Shown in pieces: positions 23,783 through 60,741 of a DNA stretch of 64,000 bases. Position 1 is the stretch's first letter. Every line of letters starts with the position of its first letter. A program made the translations under genes and the position numbers. The notes below the pieces were generated by a model, which did no database searches, had not been told where the DNA came from, and saw only the letters and a program-made list of their open reading frames with translations. The stretch spans positions 73,226-137,225 of the forward strand of contig OZ241322.1 in NCBI GenBank assembly GCA_965199715.1, given 5' to 3'. Origin of the DNA: Vicinamibacteria bacterium (GTDB lineage Bacteria > Acidobacteriota > Vicinamibacteria > Marinacidobacterales > Marinacidobacteraceae).

Positions 23783-25312
23783 TCAGGGAACGAGCAGGTT
23801 CCGCCGGAGCCGGCCGGCCGCCGGGTCGGACATCCCGTCGGCGAGCGTCGAGGCGAAGCCGGGCCCGTAGCGCCCGGCGAAGACGAGCGGCCCCAGCCGA
23901 CGCTCCTGCGGCGCGCCGCCGGGGAAGAGCGCGTTCCGCGCCCGCAGGAAGCGCCGCCGCCGCTCCTGGTCGCGCCGCTTGGCCGCCCGCAGCGCCTTGC
24001 CCTCCAGATCGCCGAGGATGCCCAGCACCTTGCCCCGCGCGCGGGCGACGGCTCCGGCGAGGCTCGGGTCGAGCGCCCCGAGCGCCGCCTCGACCGCGGC
24101 GAGCCGTTCCTCGTTCGCGGCCCGCGCCGAAGCGAGCGCCGCGTCGGAACGGGGATCGCCGGAGCGCCGGTTGAGCGCGGCCTCGTCGGCGTGCGAGAGC
24201 TCATCGAAGCCGATCCCGTCCTCGTCCAGAACCCGCAGCGCCGGCCGATGCAGGATGCTGACGAGGTGCCGCGGCAGCACCAGCGGCCGCGGAATTCCGT
24301 GGAGTTCGTAGAGCGCTCCCATCTGCGCGTGGTAGGCGAGCTCCGACGGCCCCGCGACGTACGCCGCGGTGGGGAGGAGCGCGTCCTGGACCAGCGGGCG
24401 CAAGAGCACCGCGGCGCTCGCGCGTTCCGGCGCGGACTCCAGATCCGGCCACGGCGGCTCGGCGCGGCTGCGGACGGAGTCCACCGTTCGGAAGACGCCG
24501 TACCCGGTCGGGCTCGCCTGCGGCGCGAACCCCCGCGCCTCGATTCGCGCGCTCGTCGACTCCACGAGCGCCCGCGCCTCGTCCTGCCGGTCGAGCGCCG
24601 CCCGATAGACCGGCGTCGCCAGCGCCTTCAGCGCCGGGTCGCTCGGGTTCATCACGACGAGTCCGGACCCCCGGGTCAGCCACGCGAGCAGCCGGGCGAA
24701 GGCGCCCGCGAGCGTCCGGCCCGGCCGGTAGGCGTCGCGCGCGGCGGCGACCGTTTCTTCGGAGAACGCCGTCTTCGGCAGCGTCCGCTCGAACTCGTCC
24801 AGCAGCGTCAGGACGTTGTCGTCCAGCCGGCGCACCGATCCCGGCGTTCCCGGCGCCTCGTCGTCCGGGGCGTACCGCAGCGAGACCGGCTTCCCGCCCG
24901 AATCCAGGATCCACGCGGTCCGGATTTCCTCGAAATCGTGGTCGTCGCCCTCGACCCAGAACACCGGCACCGCCGGGCGCCCGGCGCGCTCCTCGAATCG
25001 CCGCGCCGCCACGACCGTCGAGATCGCCTTCGCGAGCCCGTAGAGCGGTCCGCCGAGGAGACCCGGCTGCTGGCCGGTGACGATCGCGACCGCGCTCGGA
25101 TCGGCGAGGCGGCCGGCTGCCTCGCCGCCTTGCCGGACGAGCGCCTCTGCGACCGCCTCCCGGGGTCGGGCGAGGCTCAGCGTCCGCTCGACCGCGTCCC
25201 GCTCGGCGTCCGGAGCGAACGGATCGGGCAGGAACTCGGCGAACCCGCCCGGATCCCGCGCCCACGCCCCGAAGAACCCGCCCGGCGGGAGGTCGAGCGT
25301 CCGGACGTTCAC
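23783..25312 (-). CDS. bshC: Bacillithiol biosynthesis cysteine-adding enzyme BshC
   Basis: 'AIVTGQQPGLLGGPLY' and 'VPVFWVEGDDHDFEEI' match the B. subtilis BshC motifs 'VVVGGQQAGLLTGPLY' and 'IPIFWVAGEDHDLDEI'. GTG 25312 overlaps the lepB stop (GTGA). Confidence 0.85.
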   Translation of the reverse strand: MNVRTLDLPPGGFFGAWARDPGGFAEFLPDPFAPDAERDAVERTLSLARPREAVAEALVRQGGEAAGRLADPSAVAIVTGQQPGLLGGPLYGLAKAISTVVAARRFEERAGRPAVPVFWVEGDDHDFEEIRTAWILDSGGKPVSLRYAPDDEAPGTPGSVRRLDDNVLTLLDEFERTLPKTAFSEETVAAARDAYRPGRTLAGAFARLLAWLTRGSGLVVMNPSDPALKALATPVYRAALDRQDEARALVESTSARIEARGFAPQASPTGYGVFRTVDSVRSRAEPPWPDLESAPERASAAVLLRPLVQDALLPTAAYVAGPSELAYHAQMGALYELHGIPRPLVLPRHLVSILHRPALRVLDEDGIGFDELSHADEAALNRRSGDPRSDAALASARAANEERLAAVEAALGALDPSLAGAVARARGKVLGILGDLEGKALRAAKRRDQERRRRFLRARNALFPGGAPQERRLGPLVFAGRYGPGFASTLADGMSDPAAGRLRRNLLVP

Positions 25313-47488: not shown

Positions 47489-49621
47489 GTGGTCCTCCTG
47501 CTGCTGGCGCTCGCCCTCCAGCCGGACCCCGGCGCCGCGTTGCTGCAAGCCGCCGGCGACGGCGACGCGGCGGCGGTCCGGGAGCTGCTGGACGCGGGAG
47601 CGCCGGTCAACGCCGAGAACCGCTACGGCGCCACGCCGCTCTTCTTCGCGGCGGAGCGCGGCCACGTCGGGATCGTCCGGATGCTGCTGGACGCCGGCGC
47701 GGACGCCGCCCGGCGCGACCGGTTCTACCAGATGACGGCGCTGACCCGGGCGCTCGGGGCCGACCGCCGCGAGGCGGCGCTGCTGCTGATCGACCACGGC
47801 TCCGGCGAAGTCGGGTCGGCGCTGGTGTTCGCCGCGCGGGGCGGCGACGTCGAGCTTCTCGAGGCGGCGCTCGCGAACGGGACGTTCTTCCTCGAGGATC
47901 TGGAGGCGGCGCGGGACGCGGGCGTGGGCGCGATCCGGGAGCGTCTGGCGGCCGTCGTCGCCGAGCCGCGTCCGGTGGAGCCGGCGATCGCGCCCGGAGC
48001 GGTGGCCGGGCGGTACTTGCGCGAGGCCGACCGGGACGGCGTGCTGGTCCGGGCGGCCGGCGACGGGATCGAGGCCCGGTTCTTCACCGGCGAGGACGAG
48101 CCGGGCGAGCCGGTGCGGCTCGATCCGTCGGGCGAGCGCAGCTTCTCGGCCGAGGGACTGACGCTCGTCTTTCCCGGCCGCGGCGGCATGATCGAGCGGC
48201 TCGTCGTGGATCGCGGGGGGGAGATGCGCTCCTTCGAGCCGGTCGGCGAGCTGGAGGGGCGGGCGGAGGCGGACGTGGAGCCGGAGGAGGAGCGGGCGCC
48301 GGCGGCGGATCCGGTGGCTCCGCTGACGCCGGGACCGTGGCCGCAGTTCCGCGGGCCGCGCGGCTCGGGGATCGCCGACGGGCAGGGAACCCCGATCCGC
48401 TGGAGCGCCGAGACCGGCGAGGGGATCCGCTGGGAGGCCGAGCTTCCGGGGCTCGGCGTGTCCAGCCCGATCATCCATGGCGACCGGGTCTTCGCGGTGA
48501 CCGCGGCGAGCGTGACCGGGGACACGGAGTTCCGGATCGGCCTCTACGGCGACGTCGCGCCGGTCGAGAACGAGACCGAGCACGAGTTCGCGCTGCGGGC
48601 GCTCGATCTTTCGACCGGAGAGCCGCTCTGGACGACCGAGCTGCATCGGGGCGTCCCGAAGACGCTGCGGCACACCAAGTCCAGCCAGGCGAACGCCACG
48701 CCGGCGACCGACGGCGAGCGGATCGTCACCGTGCTCGGCAGCGTCGGGCTCCTGTTCGCGCACGACCTCGACGGGAATCTGCTGTGGGAGCGGGACGTGG
48801 GGCCGCTGAACAGCGGCTGGTTCTACGACCCCGCGTTCCAGTGGGGGCACGCATCCTCCCCGGTGATCCACGAGGACACGGTGATCCTGCTCGCCGACGT
48901 CCACGGCGACGCCTTCCTCGGGGCGTTCGACCTCGAGACCGGCGTGCCGGTCTGGCGCGCCGAGCGCAACGAGGTCTCGACGTTCTCCACGCCGCTCGTG
49001 CATGACGCGGGCGGCGCGCCGGAGGTCGTCGTCAACGGCACGGTCATCGCCGGCTACGACGCTTCCACGGGAGCCGAGCGCTGGCGGCTCGGCCCCAACT
49101 CGGAGATCCCGATCGGAGTGCCGCTCCGGGGCGACGGCCTCCTGTACGTGCAGGCCGGGTATCCGCCGGTCCGCCCGATCTACGCGATCCGTCCGGGGAT
49201 GACCGGCGACCTCACGCTGCCCCTGGGCGAGGACGCGAGCGAGGCGATCGCGTGGAGCCACGACCGGGGCGGCGTGTACATCCCGTCGCCGCTGCTCTAC
49301 CGGGGCGTCCTGTACCTGAACGCGAACAACGGCAGGCTCGCGGCCTACAGCGCCGAGACCGGGGAGCGCATCTACCGCGCGCGCATCGGCGGCGTCGGCG
49401 GCTCGTATTCGGCCTCGCCCATCGCCGCCGACGGACGGCTGTACTTCACGTCCGAGGAGGGCGAGACCTTCGTGATCCGCGCCGGACGCGAGTACGCGCT
49501 CCTCGCCCGGAACACCGTGGATCGGATCGTCATGGCGAGCCCGGCGGCGAGCGACGGGGTTCTGGTGATCCGGGCGATCGACCGGTTGTTCGGGATCTCC
49601 GGCGGGGACGCGCATCCTTGA
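47489..49621 (+). CDS. Ankyrin-repeat + PQQ-like beta-propeller fusion protein, paralog 7
   Basis: N-terminal 'GDAAAVRELLDAGAPVNAENRYGATPLFFAAERGHVGIVRMLLDAGADA' (ANK repeats), an acidic linker, then 'PWPQFRGPRGSG' plus propeller blades. Confidence 0.8.
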   Translation: MVLLLLALALQPDPGAALLQAAGDGDAAAVRELLDAGAPVNAENRYGATPLFFAAERGHVGIVRMLLDAGADAARRDRFYQMTALTRALGADRREAALLLIDHGSGEVGSALVFAARGGDVELLEAALANGTFFLEDLEAARDAGVGAIRERLAAVVAEPRPVEPAIAPGAVAGRYLREADRDGVLVRAAGDGIEARFFTGEDEPGEPVRLDPSGERSFSAEGLTLVFPGRGGMIERLVVDRGGEMRSFEPVGELEGRAEADVEPEEERAPAADPVAPLTPGPWPQFRGPRGSGIADGQGTPIRWSAETGEGIRWEAELPGLGVSSPIIHGDRVFAVTAASVTGDTEFRIGLYGDVAPVENETEHEFALRALDLSTGEPLWTTELHRGVPKTLRHTKSSQANATPATDGERIVTVLGSVGLLFAHDLDGNLLWERDVGPLNSGWFYDPAFQWGHASSPVIHEDTVILLADVHGDAFLGAFDLETGVPVWRAERNEVSTFSTPLVHDAGGAPEVVVNGTVIAGYDASTGAERWRLGPNSEIPIGVPLRGDGLLYVQAGYPPVRPIYAIRPGMTGDLTLPLGEDASEAIAWSHDRGGVYIPSPLLYRGVLYLNANNGRLAAYSAETGERIYRARIGGVGGSYSASPIAADGRLYFTSEEGETFVIRAGREYALLARNTVDRIVMASPAASDGVLVIRAIDRLFGISGGDAHP

Positions 49622-54825: not shown

Positions 54826-56699
54826 GCGCGCTTACGGAGGCCGTACGCCGCCAGCAGCAGCAGGATCCCCGCGCCGGCCCAGTTCGGCGCGGCCAGCAGC
54901 GCCCCGGCGTCGGGCGGCCAGAGCAGGAAGACGGTCGCGAGCAGCAGCAGCGCCCGTGAGGCGACCCCGAGCGGGCCGAACAGCCAGCCAGTGAGCCCGG
55001 CGGAGAGCGTCGCCACGACGAGCGCGCCGAGCAGGAACGCCGCGACCGCCCCGGGGACGCCGCGCCCGTCGAGGATCAGCAGCAGCTCCGGCCGCCATAC
55101 GAAGAAGTAGGGCAGCGCGAATCCGGTCAGCGCGAATCGGAAGGCGGTGACCGCCACCGGCAGGATCGGGGCGTTCGCGATTCCCGCCGTCGTGTAGGCG
55201 GCGAGCGCGACCGGCGGGGTCACCATCGAGAGCATCCCGAAGTAGAAGATGAAGAAGTGGATCGACAGCGGCGGCACGCCGAGCTGGCCGATGATCGGGC
55301 CGATTAGAGTGGCCATCAGCAGGTAGCAGACCGCCGACGGCAGGCCCATGCCGAGCACGACCGAGCCGACCATGATGAGCAGCAGCGCCGGCAGCAGGCC
55401 GTCGCCGGCCACCGAGAGGACCGTCGCCGGAAACCGCGTCCCGAGCCCGGTCAGCGTGACCATCCCGAGGATGATCCCGACCGATCCCGCCGCGGCGACG
55501 AGCGGCGCCGCGCCGCCGGCGATCTGGCGCAACCCGTCGAGACCGCGGCTCAGGCTCGGGCGCGTCGAGGGGTGGAGCGCGGCGACGACCGCGACCACGA
55601 CGAGCGCCACGCTCACCGAGCGGAAGACGGTGCGTCCGGCGACGAGCGACGCGAGCAGGCTGAGCAGCCCGGCGGAGAAGACGACCCCGGGCCAGATCGG
55701 TCCGCGCGCTTGTTCGGACGCAGGCGCCTCGGTCTCGCCGAACCGCTCGCGGCGCGCCTCGAGGTGGACCATCGTCAGCAGCGCGAGGTAGTAGAGGATC
55801 GACGGCAGGATCGCTGCCCGCACCACGGTGAGGAAGCTCACCGGCGGGTCCACGAGCTCCAGCATCATGTAGGCGCCCGCGCCCATGACCGGGGGCACGA
55901 GCGCCGCGCCCGAAGCCGCGGCCGCCGTGATCCCGGCGGCGGCCCGGGCGGTGAACCCGGTGCTGCGCATGAGCGGGATCGTCAGCGTGCCGGTGGTGGC
56001 CGCTCCCGCGACCGCGCTTCCCGACAGCGAACCCATGAGCGCGTTCGCGAAGACCGAGACCTTCGCCGCCCCGCCCACGCTTCCGAGGAAGAGCCGCCGC
56101 GCCGAGCGGGTGATGAACCCGGTCGCGCCGGTCTGCTGGAGCGCCGCCCCGAACGCGACGAACAGGAAGACGTACGAGAACATCACCTTCATCGCGATCC
56201 CGAAGACGCCCTGGCTTTGCAAGAAGCCCTGCGACGCGATCCGGCTCAGCGAGTACCCCCGGTGCGGGAACAGGAGGTCCGGCATGTGGGGCCCGAGGAT
56301 CGCGTGGACGAGGAAGAGGCCGGTCAGGATCGGCAGCGCCGGCCCGAGCGCCCGCCACGTCGCGAGCAGCGCCGCGCCGATCCCGAGCGTCCCGAACGCG
56401 AGGTCCATCGGGGTCTCGGCCCCCGCCCGCGCGCCGAGCGTGGTCGGCCCGAGCGCGCTCCACCAGAAGACGTAGCCCGCGGCCGCCGCCGAGGCGGCGA
56501 TTCCGGCGACGTCGAGGAGCCGCAGCCAGAGCGGGTCGCCGTCCTTCCCCTTGGCGAGGAAGCACAGCGGCAGCCCGAGCAGCGCGAAGACGGCGAGCTG
56601 CGCCTGCGGCGCGAGCGAGGGCCGGTTGACCTCGACGAGGACGAACCCGGTCAGCAGAAGCGCGAGCGCCGGGATCCCGAACCGGCGCGCGGAGCTCAG
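54807..56699 (-). CDS. TAXI-type TRAP transporter fused permease (4TM DctQ-like + 12TM DctM-like)
   Basis: The DctM-like body runs from the ATG at 56408. The same frame stays open and TM-rich upstream ('LLSSARRFGIPALALLLTGFVLVEV...'), but has no ATG/GTG/TTG. The first in-frame codon after the SBP stop is CTG (CTGA overlap at 56696-56699). The 5' end is therefore uncertain; the minimal ORF is 54807..56408. Confidence 0.6.
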   Translation of the reverse strand: MSSARRFGIPALALLLTGFVLVEVNRPSLAPQAQLAVFALLGLPLCFLAKGKDGDPLWLRLLDVAGIAASAAAAGYVFWWSALGPTTLGARAGAETPMDLAFGTLGIGAALLATWRALGPALPILTGLFLVHAILGPHMPDLLFPHRGYSLSRIASQGFLQSQGVFGIAMKVMFSYVFLFVAFGAALQQTGATGFITRSARRLFLGSVGGAAKVSVFANALMGSLSGSAVAGAATTGTLTIPLMRSTGFTARAAAGITAAAASGAALVPPVMGAGAYMMLELVDPPVSFLTVVRAAILPSILYYLALLTMVHLEARRERFGETEAPASEQARGPIWPGVVFSAGLLSLLASLVAGRTVFRSVSVALVVVAVVAALHPSTRPSLSRGLDGLRQIAGGAAPLVAAAGSVGIILGMVTLTGLGTRFPATVLSVAGDGLLPALLLIMVGSVVLGMGLPSAVCYLLMATLIGPIIGQLGVPPLSIHFFIFYFGMLSMVTPPVALAAYTTAGIANAPILPVAVTAFRFALTGFALPYFFVWRPELLLILDGRGVPGAVAAFLLGALVVATLSAGLTGWLFGPLGVASRALLLLATVFLLWPPDAGALLAAPNWAGAGILLLLAAYGLRKRAQSPMQ

Positions 56700-57658
56700 G
56701 AGCCCGGCCAGATCCCGGCTTCCCGGTAGTACCGCTCCGCCCCCGGATGGAAGGGGACGCCGGTGCTGCGCACGGCGTTGTCAGCGCGGATGGAGCGCCC
56801 CGCCGGATGCTTGGTCGCGACGTCCTCGCGGGCCTCCCACAGCGTCCGGGTGATCCGGTAGATCAGCTCGGGATCCGCGTCGGCGCGGGTGATGAGGTGC
56901 ATGGATCCCACGTCGAGTCCGAGGTAGTCCTCGTCCTGGTTCCGGTAGGTCCCCGCCGGGACCACCGCGGGCCGGTAGAACGGGTACTCGTCGGGAAGCG
57001 CGTCCCGGACCGCGGGATCGAGCGGCACGAGGCGGACGTCCATTCCCGAGGCGGCCTGCACGATCGAGGCGGTGGGGACCGCGCCGCCGAGGAAGGCGGC
57101 CTGGGCGGAGCCGTCGGTGAGCATGTCCACCGCGCCCGCCTGGGTGTTGTACAGCGGCACGAAGTCCTGGTAGCCGACCCCGTGCGCCTCGACGATCGGG
57201 CGGATGAAGTGCTCGAACCCGGCGCCGGCCACGCCGACCACGACCCGCCGCCCGGCGAGGTCGGAGAGCCCCGCGATCCCGTGGCGGACCGGCGCGACGA
57301 AGGTCGCCACGTTCGGGGCGAGGGTCATGACCGCCTGCACCGGATACGCCTGGCCCCAGCCGTCCTCGCCGCGCGACGCGAAGTAGGTGACAGCGGCGTT
57401 CGAGAGCGCCAGATCCAGCTCGCCCCGGCTGAGGCGGCGGATGTTCTCGCCCGAGCCCTTGGTCGCCTCGGCGGTGATCTCGAACTCGCCGGACTCCTGG
57501 AGCACCTCGGCGAGCGCCCCCGCGACCACGAAGAACGCCCCGCCGGGAGGGGCGCCGCCGAGGCTCAGGAAGCGGTTCGTCGAGTCCCCGCCGACTCCGC
57601 AACTCGCGGCCAGAAGCAGGAGGGCGGGGGCGATTCGGGTCATGCGCCCCGGAAGCAT
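56696..57658 (-). CDS. TAXI-family TRAP transporter solute-binding protein (lipoprotein)
   Basis: 'MTRIAPALLLLAASCG' lipobox. 'FFVVAGALAEV...TKGSGENIRRLSRGELDLAL' is typical of TAXI/Imp receptors. Confidence 0.8.
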   Translation of the reverse strand: MLPGRMTRIAPALLLLAASCGVGGDSTNRFLSLGGAPPGGAFFVVAGALAEVLQESGEFEITAEATKGSGENIRRLSRGELDLALSNAAVTYFASRGEDGWGQAYPVQAVMTLAPNVATFVAPVRHGIAGLSDLAGRRVVVGVAGAGFEHFIRPIVEAHGVGYQDFVPLYNTQAGAVDMLTDGSAQAAFLGGAVPTASIVQAASGMDVRLVPLDPAVRDALPDEYPFYRPAVVPAGTYRNQDEDYLGLDVGSMHLITRADADPELIYRITRTLWEAREDVATKHPAGRSIRADNAVRSTGVPFHPGAERYYREAGIWPGS

Positions 57659-57674
57659 ATAAACTCACAATGAC

Positions 57675-58307
57675 GTGCTTCTGCGCCAGTCGGACCAGGA
57701 CGCCATTCGCAAGCTGCTCGCCCAGCTTCCGGGGCCGGTGACCCTCACGCTGCGAACGATCCGCGAGGGCGAGTGCCGCTCCTGCCCGACGACCGAGCAG
57801 TTGCTGCAGGAGGTCGCGGAGCTCTCCCCGAACGTCCGCGTCGAGATCGAGGAGGCGGAGGCGCCCGAGGAGCCGGCCCCGGTCATCACGCTCACCGGCG
57901 CCGCCGCCGGCCGGGTCCGCTTCCTCGGGCTGCCCGAGGGGCACGAGTTCGCTTCGCTCCTCGACGCGATGCGGCGGGTCGCGGGCGAGCCGCTCACGCT
58001 CGGCGACGCGACGAGGGACGCGCTCGCCGGACTCCGGCGGCCGGCGCACGTCCGCGTCTTCGCCACCCCCAATTGACCGTATTGCCCCCCGGCGGCCGGT
58101 CTGGCCGTCCAGTTCGCGGTCGCGAGCGAGAAGGTCTCGACCGACGTGGTGCTGGCGCGGGACTACCCGGGGCTGGCCCGGCGGTATCGGCTCAGTTCGG
58201 TGCCGCTGACCGTGATCGAGTCGGAGGGAGCCTCGCGCAGCGTCCTCGGCGCGCGGCCGGAGGCGGACTTCCGCGACGCCCTGCTGGAGGCCGACGGCGA
58301 TGCCTGA
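57675..58307 (+). CDS. Candidate selenoprotein: two-domain glutaredoxin-like / protein-disulfide-oxidoreductase-like thioredoxin-fold protein with in-frame UGA (Sec) at 58074..58076
   Basis: Unit 1 has 'CRSCP' and 'RVRFLGLPEGHEFASLLDAM'. Unit 2 reads 'HVRVFATPN-TGA-PYCPPAAGLAVQFAV...RYRLSSVPLTVIE', so the TGA sits exactly where the first Cys of the conserved CPYC motif belongs. The reading frame stays open to TGA 58305-58307. A SECIS-like hairpin lies 14 nt downstream of the UGA. Confidence 0.6.
58091..58109 (+). promoter_or_regulatory. SECIS-like stem-loop (GGCGGCC-GGUCU-GGCCGUC) downstream of in-frame UGA
   Basis: 7-bp stem (one G-U pair) with apical loop GGUCU, starting 14 nt after the UGA. 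The apical GGUCU is about 21 nt from the UGA. In E. coli fdhF the apical GGUCU lies about 18 nt from the UGA. Confidence 0.55.
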
Positions 58308-59748
58308 ACTGACCCGACGCGCGGCGCTCGCGCTCCTGGGCGCCTCGCCGGCCTCGCTAGCCCGTTCGGCGCCGTTCCCCGAAGACTCGGTCGGCGACCT
58401 CGGGCGGAGGATCCACGGCGTCCGCCGCCGGTTCGGCCTGAACCGGGCGATCGGCGTCCACGTCCGCCATCTCGAGTCCGGGACCGAACTCTTCAGCCAC
58501 AACGCCGACCGGACCTACATCCCGGCGTCGGGCATGAAGCTGCCGGTGATGGGGGCGTGCCTCCACTACCTCGGGCCGTCGTACCGCTTTCCGACGCGGT
58601 TCTACGTGGACGCGCCGCCCGACGCGGATGGGGTGATCCACGGGCCGGTCCACGTCGTCGGCTGCGGCGATCCGTCCATCACCCGCCACGACATGGACTT
58701 CATCGCCGACTCGCTCGCCGCCGCCGGAATCACGGAAGTGCGGGGCGGCGTGCTCCTCGACGACGGGTTCTTCGAGGCGCAGGAGGAGGACCAGCCGCGG
58801 ATCGCCCGCATGATGGCCAAGCGACTGCCGATCCAGAGCGCGCTCGGCTACATGTGGAACCGGGTCGAGGTGGCGGGCGTGCCGGGCGAGGGAAACCGGC
58901 CCGACGTCCGCGACGAGGGCCACGGGTACTACGAGCTCGACAACCGCATGGTGCTGCGCAACTCCGGGCGCCCCTACATCCTCGTCCAACGCCGGGGCAG
59001 GCGGCGCGCGCGCATCCAGGGGCGCATCCGCCGGGGCGGAAGCGAGCGGGTGGCGCGGTTCACCGCGACCGAGCCGGCGCTCTACTTCGGCTACGCCTTC
59101 CAGGGCAAGCTCGCGGAGCGCGGGATCGTCGTCCACGGCGAGCCCGAACGGAAGGCGCTGCCGAATCCGCGCGAGAAGCTGCTCCTGTACCGACACGAGT
59201 CGGCGTCGCTGCCGCAGGTGCTGGAGGCGCTCGGCAAGTACAGCAACAACTGGTCCTCCGAGCAGTTGCTCTTCGTCGCCGGCGCGCACCGCTGGGGGCC
59301 GCCCGGAACGGTCGAAAAGGGCGCGGCGGCGCTCGAGGAGTACATCGTCGGCCTCGGGTTCCCGGCCAGCACCTTCAAGATCGCCGACGGCTCCGGGCTC
59401 TCCCGCGAGAACAAGCTGAGCGCGCGGATCCTCGTGGCCATCGTGCGCGACCTCTACCGCCCGCCCGAGCTCCGCTCCGACTTCCTCTGCTCGCTCGCGG
59501 TCTCCGGCGTGGACGGCACGCTCGCCCGCCGCATGCGCTCCCGGAACACGCTCGGCCAGGTCATGGCCAAGACCGGCAGCCTCAACGGCGTGAGCTCGCT
59601 CTCCGGCGTGGCGTTCCCGCACGGGCCGCAGGATCGGGCGCTCGGGTTCTCGGTCGTGACGAACGGCGTGCGCCAGAGCAGCGGCGACGCGGTCGAGAAC
59701 GTGATCGCGGGCGAGCTGGTGAGCTGGGCGAGCGACCTGACCACCTGA
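58300..59748 (+). CDS. dacB: D-alanyl-D-alanine carboxypeptidase/endopeptidase (PBP4, S13 family)
   Basis: Tat-like signal 'RRAALALLGASPASLA'. 'PASGMKLPV' (SxxK), 'SNNWSSEQL', 'KTGSL' motifs. ATG 58300 overlaps the preceding stop by 8 nt. Confidence 0.8.
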   Translation: MPELTRRAALALLGASPASLARSAPFPEDSVGDLGRRIHGVRRRFGLNRAIGVHVRHLESGTELFSHNADRTYIPASGMKLPVMGACLHYLGPSYRFPTRFYVDAPPDADGVIHGPVHVVGCGDPSITRHDMDFIADSLAAAGITEVRGGVLLDDGFFEAQEEDQPRIARMMAKRLPIQSALGYMWNRVEVAGVPGEGNRPDVRDEGHGYYELDNRMVLRNSGRPYILVQRRGRRRARIQGRIRRGGSERVARFTATEPALYFGYAFQGKLAERGIVVHGEPERKALPNPREKLLLYRHESASLPQVLEALGKYSNNWSSEQLLFVAGAHRWGPPGTVEKGAAALEEYIVGLGFPASTFKIADGSGLSRENKLSARILVAIVRDLYRPPELRSDFLCSLAVSGVDGTLARRMRSRNTLGQVMAKTGSLNGVSSLSGVAFPHGPQDRALGFSVVTNGVRQSSGDAVENVIAGELVSWASDLTT

Positions 59749-60741
59749 GTGCGGGGCGTCCCGGGCCTCGATCCGCCCGAGTACTGCGACTGGAAGCCGG
59801 ACCCCGACGCGGTCCGGGAGTTCCGCGACAACGCCGGCGACGCGGACGACGCCGACTTCCTCGGGCTGTACCGGGGGCTCGTGCGGAATCGGCTCCACGA
59901 CCGCCAGCTCAAGCGGTGGGTGCGGTCGGGCCGGCTCTCGAAGGCGTGGCTCGGGACCGGGGAGGAGGCGGTCACCGTCGGGGCCTGCCACGCGCTCGGC
60001 CCCCGGGACGCGGTCGGGCCGATGATCCGCAACGCGGGAGCCGCGCGAGAGCGGGGCATGCCGCTCGTCGAGATGTTCCGGGGCGCGCTCGGGGACCTCG
60101 ACGGTCCCGCCTGCGGGCGCGACCTCCATTTCGGCGACCTCGACCGGGGCGTGGTCGCGCCCATCAGCATGGTCGGGTCGCTCGTCCCGGTGCTGGCCGG
60201 GATGGCGCTCGCCTATCGGCTGCGGGGCGAGGACCGGGCCGGCCTCACGTGGGTCGGCGACGGGACCACCGGAACCGCCGGATTCCACGAAGGGCTCACG
60301 TCGGCGGTCGCGCTCGGGGCGCCGCTGATCGTCGTGATCCAGAACAACCGGGTCGCGCTCGGAACCCGGACGCCCGAGGACGCGCCCTTCGCCGCGCTCG
60401 GGGCGGCGTACGGAGTTGCGTCGCTGGAAGTGGACGGCAACCATGTCCTCGACGTGCTCCGGGGCGTGCGCCGCGCGCGGGAGCGATGCCTTGCCGACGC
60501 GCGTCCGGCGCTCGTCGTGGCGAGCACGTTCCGGATGGGCGGGCACGCGACGCACGACGAGGCCGAGGCGCGAGCGCTGTTTCCCCCGGAGGTCTTCCGG
60601 TGGTGGGGAAGCCGCGACCCGGTGCGCCAGTACCGGCACTGGCTCGTCGAGGAGGGCCGCGCCGATGAGGCGGCGGTGGAGGCCGTCGAGCGCGAGGTCG
60701 AGGCGGAGGTCGAGGCGGCGGCGAGCGAGGCGTCAGGGTAG
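59749..60741 (+). CDS. Thiamine-pyrophosphate-dependent 2-oxoacid dehydrogenase E1 component alpha subunit (no beta subunit gene follows)
   Basis: 'YRGLVRNRLHDRQLKRWVRSGRLSKAWLGTGEEAV', 'GDGTTGTAGFHEGL' (TPP-binding GDG), 'VIQNNRVALGT'. GTG 59749. Confidence 0.7.
   Translation: MRGVPGLDPPEYCDWKPDPDAVREFRDNAGDADDADFLGLYRGLVRNRLHDRQLKRWVRSGRLSKAWLGTGEEAVTVGACHALGPRDAVGPMIRNAGAARERGMPLVEMFRGALGDLDGPACGRDLHFGDLDRGVVAPISMVGSLVPVLAGMALAYRLRGEDRAGLTWVGDGTTGTAGFHEGLTSAVALGAPLIVVIQNNRVALGTRTPEDAPFAALGAAYGVASLEVDGNHVLDVLRGVRRARERCLADARPALVVASTFRMGGHATHDEAEARALFPPEVFRWWGSRDPVRQYRHWLVEEGRADEAAVEAVEREVEAEVEAAASEASG

Follow-up and report, generated by a model that had tools for sequence, protein, structure and literature searches.

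A probable selenocysteine-containing protein disulfide oxidoreductase encoded across an in-frame UGA in an acidobacterium

In a 64 kb stretch of acidobacterial DNA (hereafter the window, 72.4% GC), a predicted gene ends at a TGA codon beyond which the same reading frame stays open. Does this TGA terminate a short protein, does it mark a decayed or wrongly sequenced gene, or is it read as selenocysteine (Sec)? The original prediction took the locus for that of an unannotated selenoprotein, a view now backed by a UGA conserved in a Cys column, by purifying selection on the sequence downstream of it and by a conserved SECIS-type hairpin. From these sequence comparisons, we regard it as highly probable that 57675..58307 is a single gene coding for a genuine 210-residue Sec-containing protein, with a U-P-Y-C site and an in-frame bacterial SECIS. 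This gene is a new and divergent member of a known selenoprotein family, in a phylum known to use Sec.

The gene, its neighbours and its family

The gene (57675..58307, forward strand) starts with GTG and runs in one frame through the TGA at 58074-58076 to a stop TGA at 58305-58307, i.e. 133 + 1 + 76 = 210 codons, with codon 134 as the single in-frame TGA. Around this codon, the peptide reads ...VRVFATPN-U-PYCPPAAGLAVQFAVASEK... (in a shorter rendering, ...VFATPN-U-PYCPPAAGLAVQFA...), and the N-terminus of the 210-aa protein, MLLR.SD, agrees with that of the orthologs. The original prediction had pointed out that the gene track breaks the gene at the TGA although the frame continues, and that gene callers would reduce it to a 133-aa fragment. 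Both points are correct, the public gene calls for the locus consisting of two products of 133 aa (P0001, 100% identical) and 53 aa.

The last 8 nt of this gene (ATGCCTGA, 58300..58307, forward strand), with its stop codon at 58305-58307, are shared with the following gene, which begins with the ATG at 58300. This overlap is common to four genomes, namely, those of the window and of three syntenic loci (L003, L004 and L005), and is consistent with ribosomes reaching the stop at 58305-58307, as in translational coupling. The next gene (58300-59748, forward strand) codes for a Peptidase_S13, PBP4-like D-Ala-D-Ala carboxypeptidase, and is directly followed, in the same frame, by a gene for an E1_dh protein (dehydrogenase E1 component). 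The two occupy 58300-60741 in the window, with counterparts at about 10662-13300 in L003-L005. The order TAXI-TRAP receptor/DctM (opposite strand), the Sec-containing gene, S13 peptidase and E1_dh is kept in the four genomes, and no functional link among these genes is obvious. On the other side, 16 nt (57659-57674) separate the divergent starts of the gene for the TAXI-type TRAP solute receptor (56696-57658, reverse strand) and of the gene studied here (57675, GTG); this leaves room for promoters only within the adjacent coding regions, unless one of the annotated starts has been placed too far upstream. Of note, E1_dh is split into products of 91 and 239 aa in one assembly of the same species (L001, 12075-13066, a 3x-coverage ENA contig), whereas it is intact (330 aa) in a second assembly (L002, 12075-13067) and in the window (59749-60741). 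L001 differs by one base in length, and this split is probably a low-coverage assembly error.

With regard to the protein, family searches were carried out with the 210-aa product in which U was replaced by C. The top family match was TIGR02187.2 (NCBIfam, PDO_seleno_TRX, protein disulfide oxidoreductase, hereafter PDO; E=1.1e-47, 162.1 bits), with residues 5-205 aligned to positions 2-208 of the 209 of the model. The alignment to TIGR02187-type proteins that had been foreseen is therefore an end-to-end match, although its score falls below the curated equivalog cutoff of 185 bits. The same holds for other Sec-type proteins (L003, 164.8; L004, 169.7; L006, 182.5; L008, 169.0 bits), whereas the more distant Sec-type L007 (236 bits) and the Cys homologs (246-298 bits) score above the cutoff. 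As the window protein and its close Sec orthologs score 162-182 bits, compared with 236 for L007 and 246-298 for the Cys homologs, the window clade represents a divergent branch of the family. In view of this sub-cutoff score, we assign the protein to the broad family of PDOs and AhpF N-terminal domain homologs as a divergent relative, and not as a strict equivalog. Furthermore, the N-terminal unit of the window clade is shortened, with about nine residues missing before the conserved Pro69.

Among structures, the protein aligns over its full length with Pyrococcus furiosus PDO (PfPDO, 1A8L; E=1.5e-28, residues 4-206 versus 5-224), and full-length alignments were likewise obtained with the proteins of P. 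horikoshii (1J08), Aquifex (2AYT/2YWM) and Aeropyrum (2HLS), while the alignment with the AhpF N-terminal domain was weaker. Both active sites correspond to those of PfPDO: C34-R-S-C37 (57774..57785, forward strand) aligns with the N-site CQYC, and TPN-U-PYC-P with the C-site TPTCPYCP. The family motif, a C/U-P-x-C site after [VF]-T-P-[TN], is found as VFATPN-U-PYC-P. In the orthologs, the CxxC of the N-terminal unit is CPSC, CATC, CPTC or CDTC, and it is absent from L008. The 210-aa protein would thus comprise two thioredoxin-fold units, the end-to-end matches to TIGR02187.2 and to the PDOs of known structure bearing out the earlier assignment of the downstream half to the second one. An identity as AhpF itself (TIGR03140) was considered and rejected, the match being restricted to positions 2-172 of 515 and scoring 61.6 bits where the cutoff is 502.9; lacking an FAD/NADH module, the protein is not AhpF.

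Conservation of the UGA and of the frame downstream

A first protein search returned 18 homologs, of which 10 are full length and read TP[TN]CPYCP, and 8 end exactly at ...TPT or ...TPN. The UGA at codon 134 occupies the column of the first Cys of the C-terminal TP[TN]-C-P-Y-C of these homologs, where the Cys types have TGC or TGT. Alignment to the full-length homologs and to 1A8L places the UGA (58074..58076, forward strand; U134, the first residue of U-P-Y-C, 58074-58085) at the redox-active Cys of the motif, which is where the original prediction had put it. The TGA is kept at this column in 10 out of 10 further loci (L001-L008, L089 and L093), each with 73-97 open codons after it that encode the second thioredoxin fold, and none of the ten ends there with a separate downstream gene. 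These loci consist of the two independent assemblies of the same species (L001 and L002) and of eight distinct orthologs of about 30-70% identity, originating from Acidobacteriota, Methylomirabilota and metagenomes. The syntenic loci L003-L005 lie on contigs of about 3 Mb and code for PDO proteins 66-70% identical to that of the window; L006 and L089 share 53-54% identity with it, L089 being the sole extra locus yielded by a metagenome search with the N-terminal alignment. More distant are L007 (a Vicinamibacterales MAG), L008 and L093 (a cluster with Methylomirabilota members). The Cys-type controls came from a contig search with the full-length alignment and a peptide pattern that included the Cys, and hence returned only Cys types. 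As to the source organism, the arginyl-tRNA synthetase (ArgRS) of the window shares 79-83% identity with those of the L003-L005 genomes, 68% with that of an Acidobacteria/Acidobacteriota MAG and 50% with that of Vicinamibacteria, which identifies the source as an acidobacterium.

The dN/dS values downstream of the TGA (0.16-0.65) resemble those upstream (0.20-0.48), and it is on such grounds that the reading as one gene has to be weighed against those in which the TGA is a stop, an accident or an ordinary sense codon. That the locus harbours two genes, for a 133-aa N-terminal thioredoxin-like protein and an independently started small C-terminal thioredoxin-fold protein, would agree with the 133-aa and 53-aa products of the gene callers and with the fact that the downstream pieces of L008 and L093 match PF13192 on their own. 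However, the first possible restart codon after the TGA is unconserved (+7 to +24) and its use would always remove the conserved xxC and the residues following it. The stretch from the TGA to this restart is, moreover, under strong purifying selection, with dN/dS of 0.03-0.12 in comparisons of the window with its closest relatives when the hairpin codons are excluded, the frame is unbroken in all loci examined, and all Cys homologs are single fused proteins. We thus hold an arrangement of two genes to be very unlikely. That a Cys-type PDO gene suffered a nonsense mutation, or that the sequence is in error, would require only a single-base change from TGC or TGT to TGA, but the identical TGA in the independent assemblies L001 and L002 and in eight diverged orthologs, together with purifying selection downstream, effectively refutes this explanation, to which we attach almost no probability. 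Genome-wide reassignment of UGA as a sense codon (Trp or Gly) has nothing in its favour beyond the in-frame TGA itself. TGA is a normal stop in this genome, most high-GC3 ORFs of the window ending in it, the PDO gene included, and a scan of the window and of L003-L005 for further internal TGA codons in frame and flanked by coding signal came out empty, its other matches being adjacent same-frame genes; reassignment, too, is effectively refuted, and its chances are negligible. Taken together, the conserved TGA, the selection, the syntenic overlap and the use of TGA as a stop make a pseudogene, a sequencing error, split genes and reassignment very unlikely.

The hairpin as a probable bacterial SECIS

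The UGA is followed by a perfect 7-bp stem, GGCGGCC/GGCCGUC (58091-58097 and 58103-58109), closed by the loop GGUCU (58098-58102), which together form the upper stem-loop of the candidate SECIS (58091..58109, forward strand; -12.2 kcal/mol). The stem starts 14 nt and the loop 21 nt after the UGA; the coordinates and the pairing, as originally proposed, were confirmed by folding. The published criteria for bacterial SECIS elements (PMC13188914) comprise a loop of 3-9 nt, a stem of 4-16 bp, 16-37 nt from the UGA to the loop and a folding energy of at most -7.5 kcal/mol. They further require G at position 1 or 2 of the loop, which is mostly of the form N1-G-[G/U]-N-N2 with N1/N2 pairing. With its 5-nt loop, 7-bp stem, 21-nt spacing and -12.2 kcal/mol, the hairpin lies within all of these ranges (PMC13188914), so that it passed the structural check that the original prediction had called for. 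The criteria, as implemented here, singled out 8 of 8 Sec forms versus 11 of 79 Cys forms (7 of 35 for Cys-type homologs with a GC content of at least 0.65), and L093, scored apart from the eight, was also selected. The window-type loop, [G/A]GUCU, fits N1-G-U-N-N2, with a G.U or A-U combination at N1:N2.

In the pairing register of the window, 7 out of 7 pairs can form in all six members of the clade, while at least six of the seven form in none of the 79 Cys homologs. Codons +5 to +14 (58089..58118, forward strand), which overlap the SECIS, form a block of low synonymous variation: third-position identity across the six members of the clade reaches 0.93 here, the highest value in 155 sliding windows (median, 0.51). 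Considering four-fold degenerate columns at conserved residues, 4 of 5 within the hairpin (+5 to +11) are identical in all six orthologs, versus 4 of 32 outside (Fisher p=0.005). The fifth hairpin column varies between C and U, keeping a G-C or G-U pair; apart from this, the hairpin has changed only at the loop-closing position, where G to A turns G.U into A-U. This synonymous freeze, with pairing kept, is characteristic of an RNA structure superimposed on a coding sequence.

Folding energy carries no such information. The 60-nt region folds no better than its shuffles (z = -0.19, in a sequence of 72% GC), and the minimum free energy of +10 to +52 did not separate the Sec forms from GC-rich Cys forms. 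Since folding energy is uninformative at this GC content, position-specific criteria and the analysis of synonymous sites were used instead, and the significance of the hairpin rests on its position, its loop sequence and the comparative data. A lower SECIS stem including the UGA, in which 7-10 of 10 positions pair but without compensatory changes, is not claimed. No SECIS family of Rfam gave a match in this sequence at either the gathering or permissive thresholds. Two minus-strand Rfam matches, Pseudomon-Rho (E=0.063) and sR45 (E=0.32), are below threshold and were taken as chance, the former lying inside the 3' end of the PDO gene (58248-58307, reverse strand) with 26.4 bits against a gathering score of 45.

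The SECIS register is not the same in all Sec forms: the window clade has [G/A]GUCU at 21 nt, whereas L007, L008 and L093 display another register, with a 6-bp stem and the loop CGUG[A/C] at 17 nt, which only one Cys homolog matches (L068). These CGUG[A/C] hairpins (L007, 639-700; L008, 1343-1400; L093, 10427-10490) occupy the same codons as the SECIS of the window, which suggests that, under coding constraint, the element drifted or arose anew. The presence of two SECIS solutions in one frame constitutes a small natural experiment in how such elements evolve under this constraint. In L068 (Candidatus Eisenbacteria MAG CAVYIE010000005.1), a Cys-type locus, the SECIS-like hairpin, CCGGGCGC-GGU-GCGCCUGG, follows directly after the TGC of CPxC, with -13.9 kcal/mol, a G-first loop and 17-nt spacing in the L007/L008 register; it may have persisted from a Sec ancestor or represent a pre-adaptation.

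Whether the hairpin serves Sec insertion also depends on the machinery of the organism. As previously noted for the window, it harbours neither sel genes nor a tRNA-Sec: the tRNA search found no tRNA in these 64 kb (of a genome of 2.35 Mb), and homologs of SelA, SelB or SelD were detected neither among the 20 largest genes of the window, when these were scanned with Pfam, nor in tblastn comparisons of the window with the E. coli proteins. The syntenic loci are likewise devoid of selA, selB, selD and tRNA-Sec. This absence from the window and the syntenic loci is what speaks for a read-through of UGA-134 without Sec, in which a near-cognate tRNA would insert Cys, Trp or Arg, the hairpin would be a generic stimulator, and the organism would have no Sec machinery. 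Against it, the hairpin fits the SelB-type consensus specifically, with an apical G-U and a spacing of 17-21 nt across the Sec forms, and the UGA stands at a catalytic Cys position in a family known for Sec/Cys pairs. A Cys codon is, besides, one mutation away, yet the TGA is kept in every ortholog examined, and 87 related cluster representatives, of the best 149 described below, were counted as retaining it. The phylum is also known to use Sec, with three selenoprotein families and four selenoproteins listed for Acidobacteria in the 2006 survey (PMC1794560). All this leaves read-through without Sec with a small probability. More specifically, one may conceive of a lineage lacking canonical selA, selB, selC and selD that decodes the UGA and hairpin otherwise, for instance by hairpin-stimulated insertion of Cys or Trp. 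This seems to us rather far-fetched, but such Sec-free decoding, if true, would make the widespread class of 'truncated PDOs' a Sec-independent recoding system.

Proposed function, distribution and comparison with known systems

Returning to the reading as a selenoprotein, we infer Sec insertion, SelB binding, redox partners and substrates only indirectly, in the following model. The product would be a cytoplasmic PDO with two thioredoxin folds, in which the attacking residue of the C-terminal site is Sec (U134-P-Y-C137). When the ribosome arrives at UGA-134, the hairpin 14 nt downstream, with its [G/A]GUCU loop, would be bound by SelB-GTP-Sec-tRNA(Sec); Sec would then be inserted, and translation would carry on as far as the stop at 58305. 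As judged from the homologous PfPDO and AhpF N-terminal domain, U134 may attack substrate disulfides or sulfenic acids and form a selenenylsulfide with C137. The U-P-Y-C site could, again by homology, be re-reduced by a thioredoxin-reductase-like flavoprotein, possibly via C34xxC37 of the N-terminal unit, and the protein might shuttle electrons to peroxiredoxin-type or disulfide targets. The merged gene would imply that the organism runs a full selenocysteine pathway.

In other respects, the window harbours a homolog of BshC, involved in bacillithiol biosynthesis (23783-25312, reverse strand; Pfam E=2e-62). Bacillithiol may be the low-molecular-weight thiol of this acidobacterium, and its use could bear on the redox partners of the Sec-containing PDO. 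The window also codes for a 710-aa protein (47489-49621, forward strand) combining ankyrin repeats with a PQQ-like beta-propeller, which is conserved in related genomes (left ends of L001-L003 and L005); such a combination is unusual in a free-living bacterium.

A profile of the truncated N-terminal fragments, searched against 1.84 billion cluster representatives, gave 2,341 matches. Among the best 149 of these (representatives of clusters at 50% identity), 87 end exactly at ...TP[TN] and 43 go on with CxxC. Sampled members of the clusters carry the labels "hypothetical protein", "AhpF" or "glutaredoxin-like protein", and come from MAGs of Methylomirabilota/Rokubacteria, Chloroflexota/Anaerolineae and Acidobacteriota. 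L093, the one sampled cluster checked in DNA, shows the TGA, the open frame and a SECIS. On the basis of the 87 of the best 149 representatives that end at TP[TN], and of L093, Sec forms of the PDO family appear to be common in soil and sediment lineages, where they are routinely mis-called and so systematically mis-annotated. In practical terms, the "hypothetical" fragments of 133 and 53 aa are to be merged into one Sec-containing oxidoreductase. This is a useful annotation correction that comes as no surprise and leaves the current understanding of selenoproteins unchanged.

Compared with known elements, the hairpin resembles the SECIS of E. coli fdhF by the literal GGUCU at its apex. The G-U in the apical loop is the motif contacted by SelB. 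The distance from UGA-140 to GGUCU is 18 nt in fdhF of E. coli K-12, versus 21 nt from the UGA in the window; because this offset is exactly one codon, the likeness at a similar distance that had been remarked upon in the original prediction is correct. Unlike that of fdhF, the hairpin of the window has a GC-rich, perfect 7-bp stem with no bulged U, and the U that ends GGUCU either stays unpaired or forms a wobble pair with the first base of the loop, whereas it takes part in the closing A-U pair in fdhF. As for an fdhF-type lower stem including the UGA, the 7-10 of 10 positions that pair in the window do so without clean covariation. The hairpin would operate in the manner of the fdhF element, but is a different one.

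At the protein level, P. furiosus PDO and its relatives (1J08, 2AYT/2YWM and 2HLS) match the window protein end to end and at both active sites, but they carry Cys instead of Sec, originate from hyperthermophiles and are about 16-30 residues longer. No Sec form is represented among the PDB sequence matches to the 210-aa protein. The N-terminal domain of AhpF (1ZYN, 1HYU and 4O5Q) shares the tandem thioredoxin folds and a redox CxxC in the second unit. However, AhpF (about 520 aa) has this domain fused to a FAD/NAD(P)H thioredoxin-reductase-like module, whereas the window protein stands alone with 210 residues. AhpF is not known to carry a CxxC in its N-terminal unit.

The closest system is a selenoprotein family already on record, the TIGR02187-type family being catalogued as "AhpF N-terminal domain homolog, UxxC". 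Kryukov and Gladyshev reportedly listed this UxxC homolog in 2004 as a predicted selenoprotein family, with an example from Carboxydothermus hydrogenoformans. The 2006 survey (PMC1794560) encountered it in two bacteria, and Asgard archaea joined these later. As the family has long been catalogued, the present finding is far less novel than first judged. The known members and the window gene have in common the two-unit glutaredoxin-like/PDO architecture, Sec in place of the first Cys of the C-terminal CPxC, and a SECIS hairpin located immediately downstream, within the coding sequence. What sets the window clade apart is its position as a divergent branch with a shortened N-terminal unit, and its source in Acidobacteriota, which are not among the organisms cited for the UxxC family in the 2006 survey (PMC1794560) or in the Asgard work.
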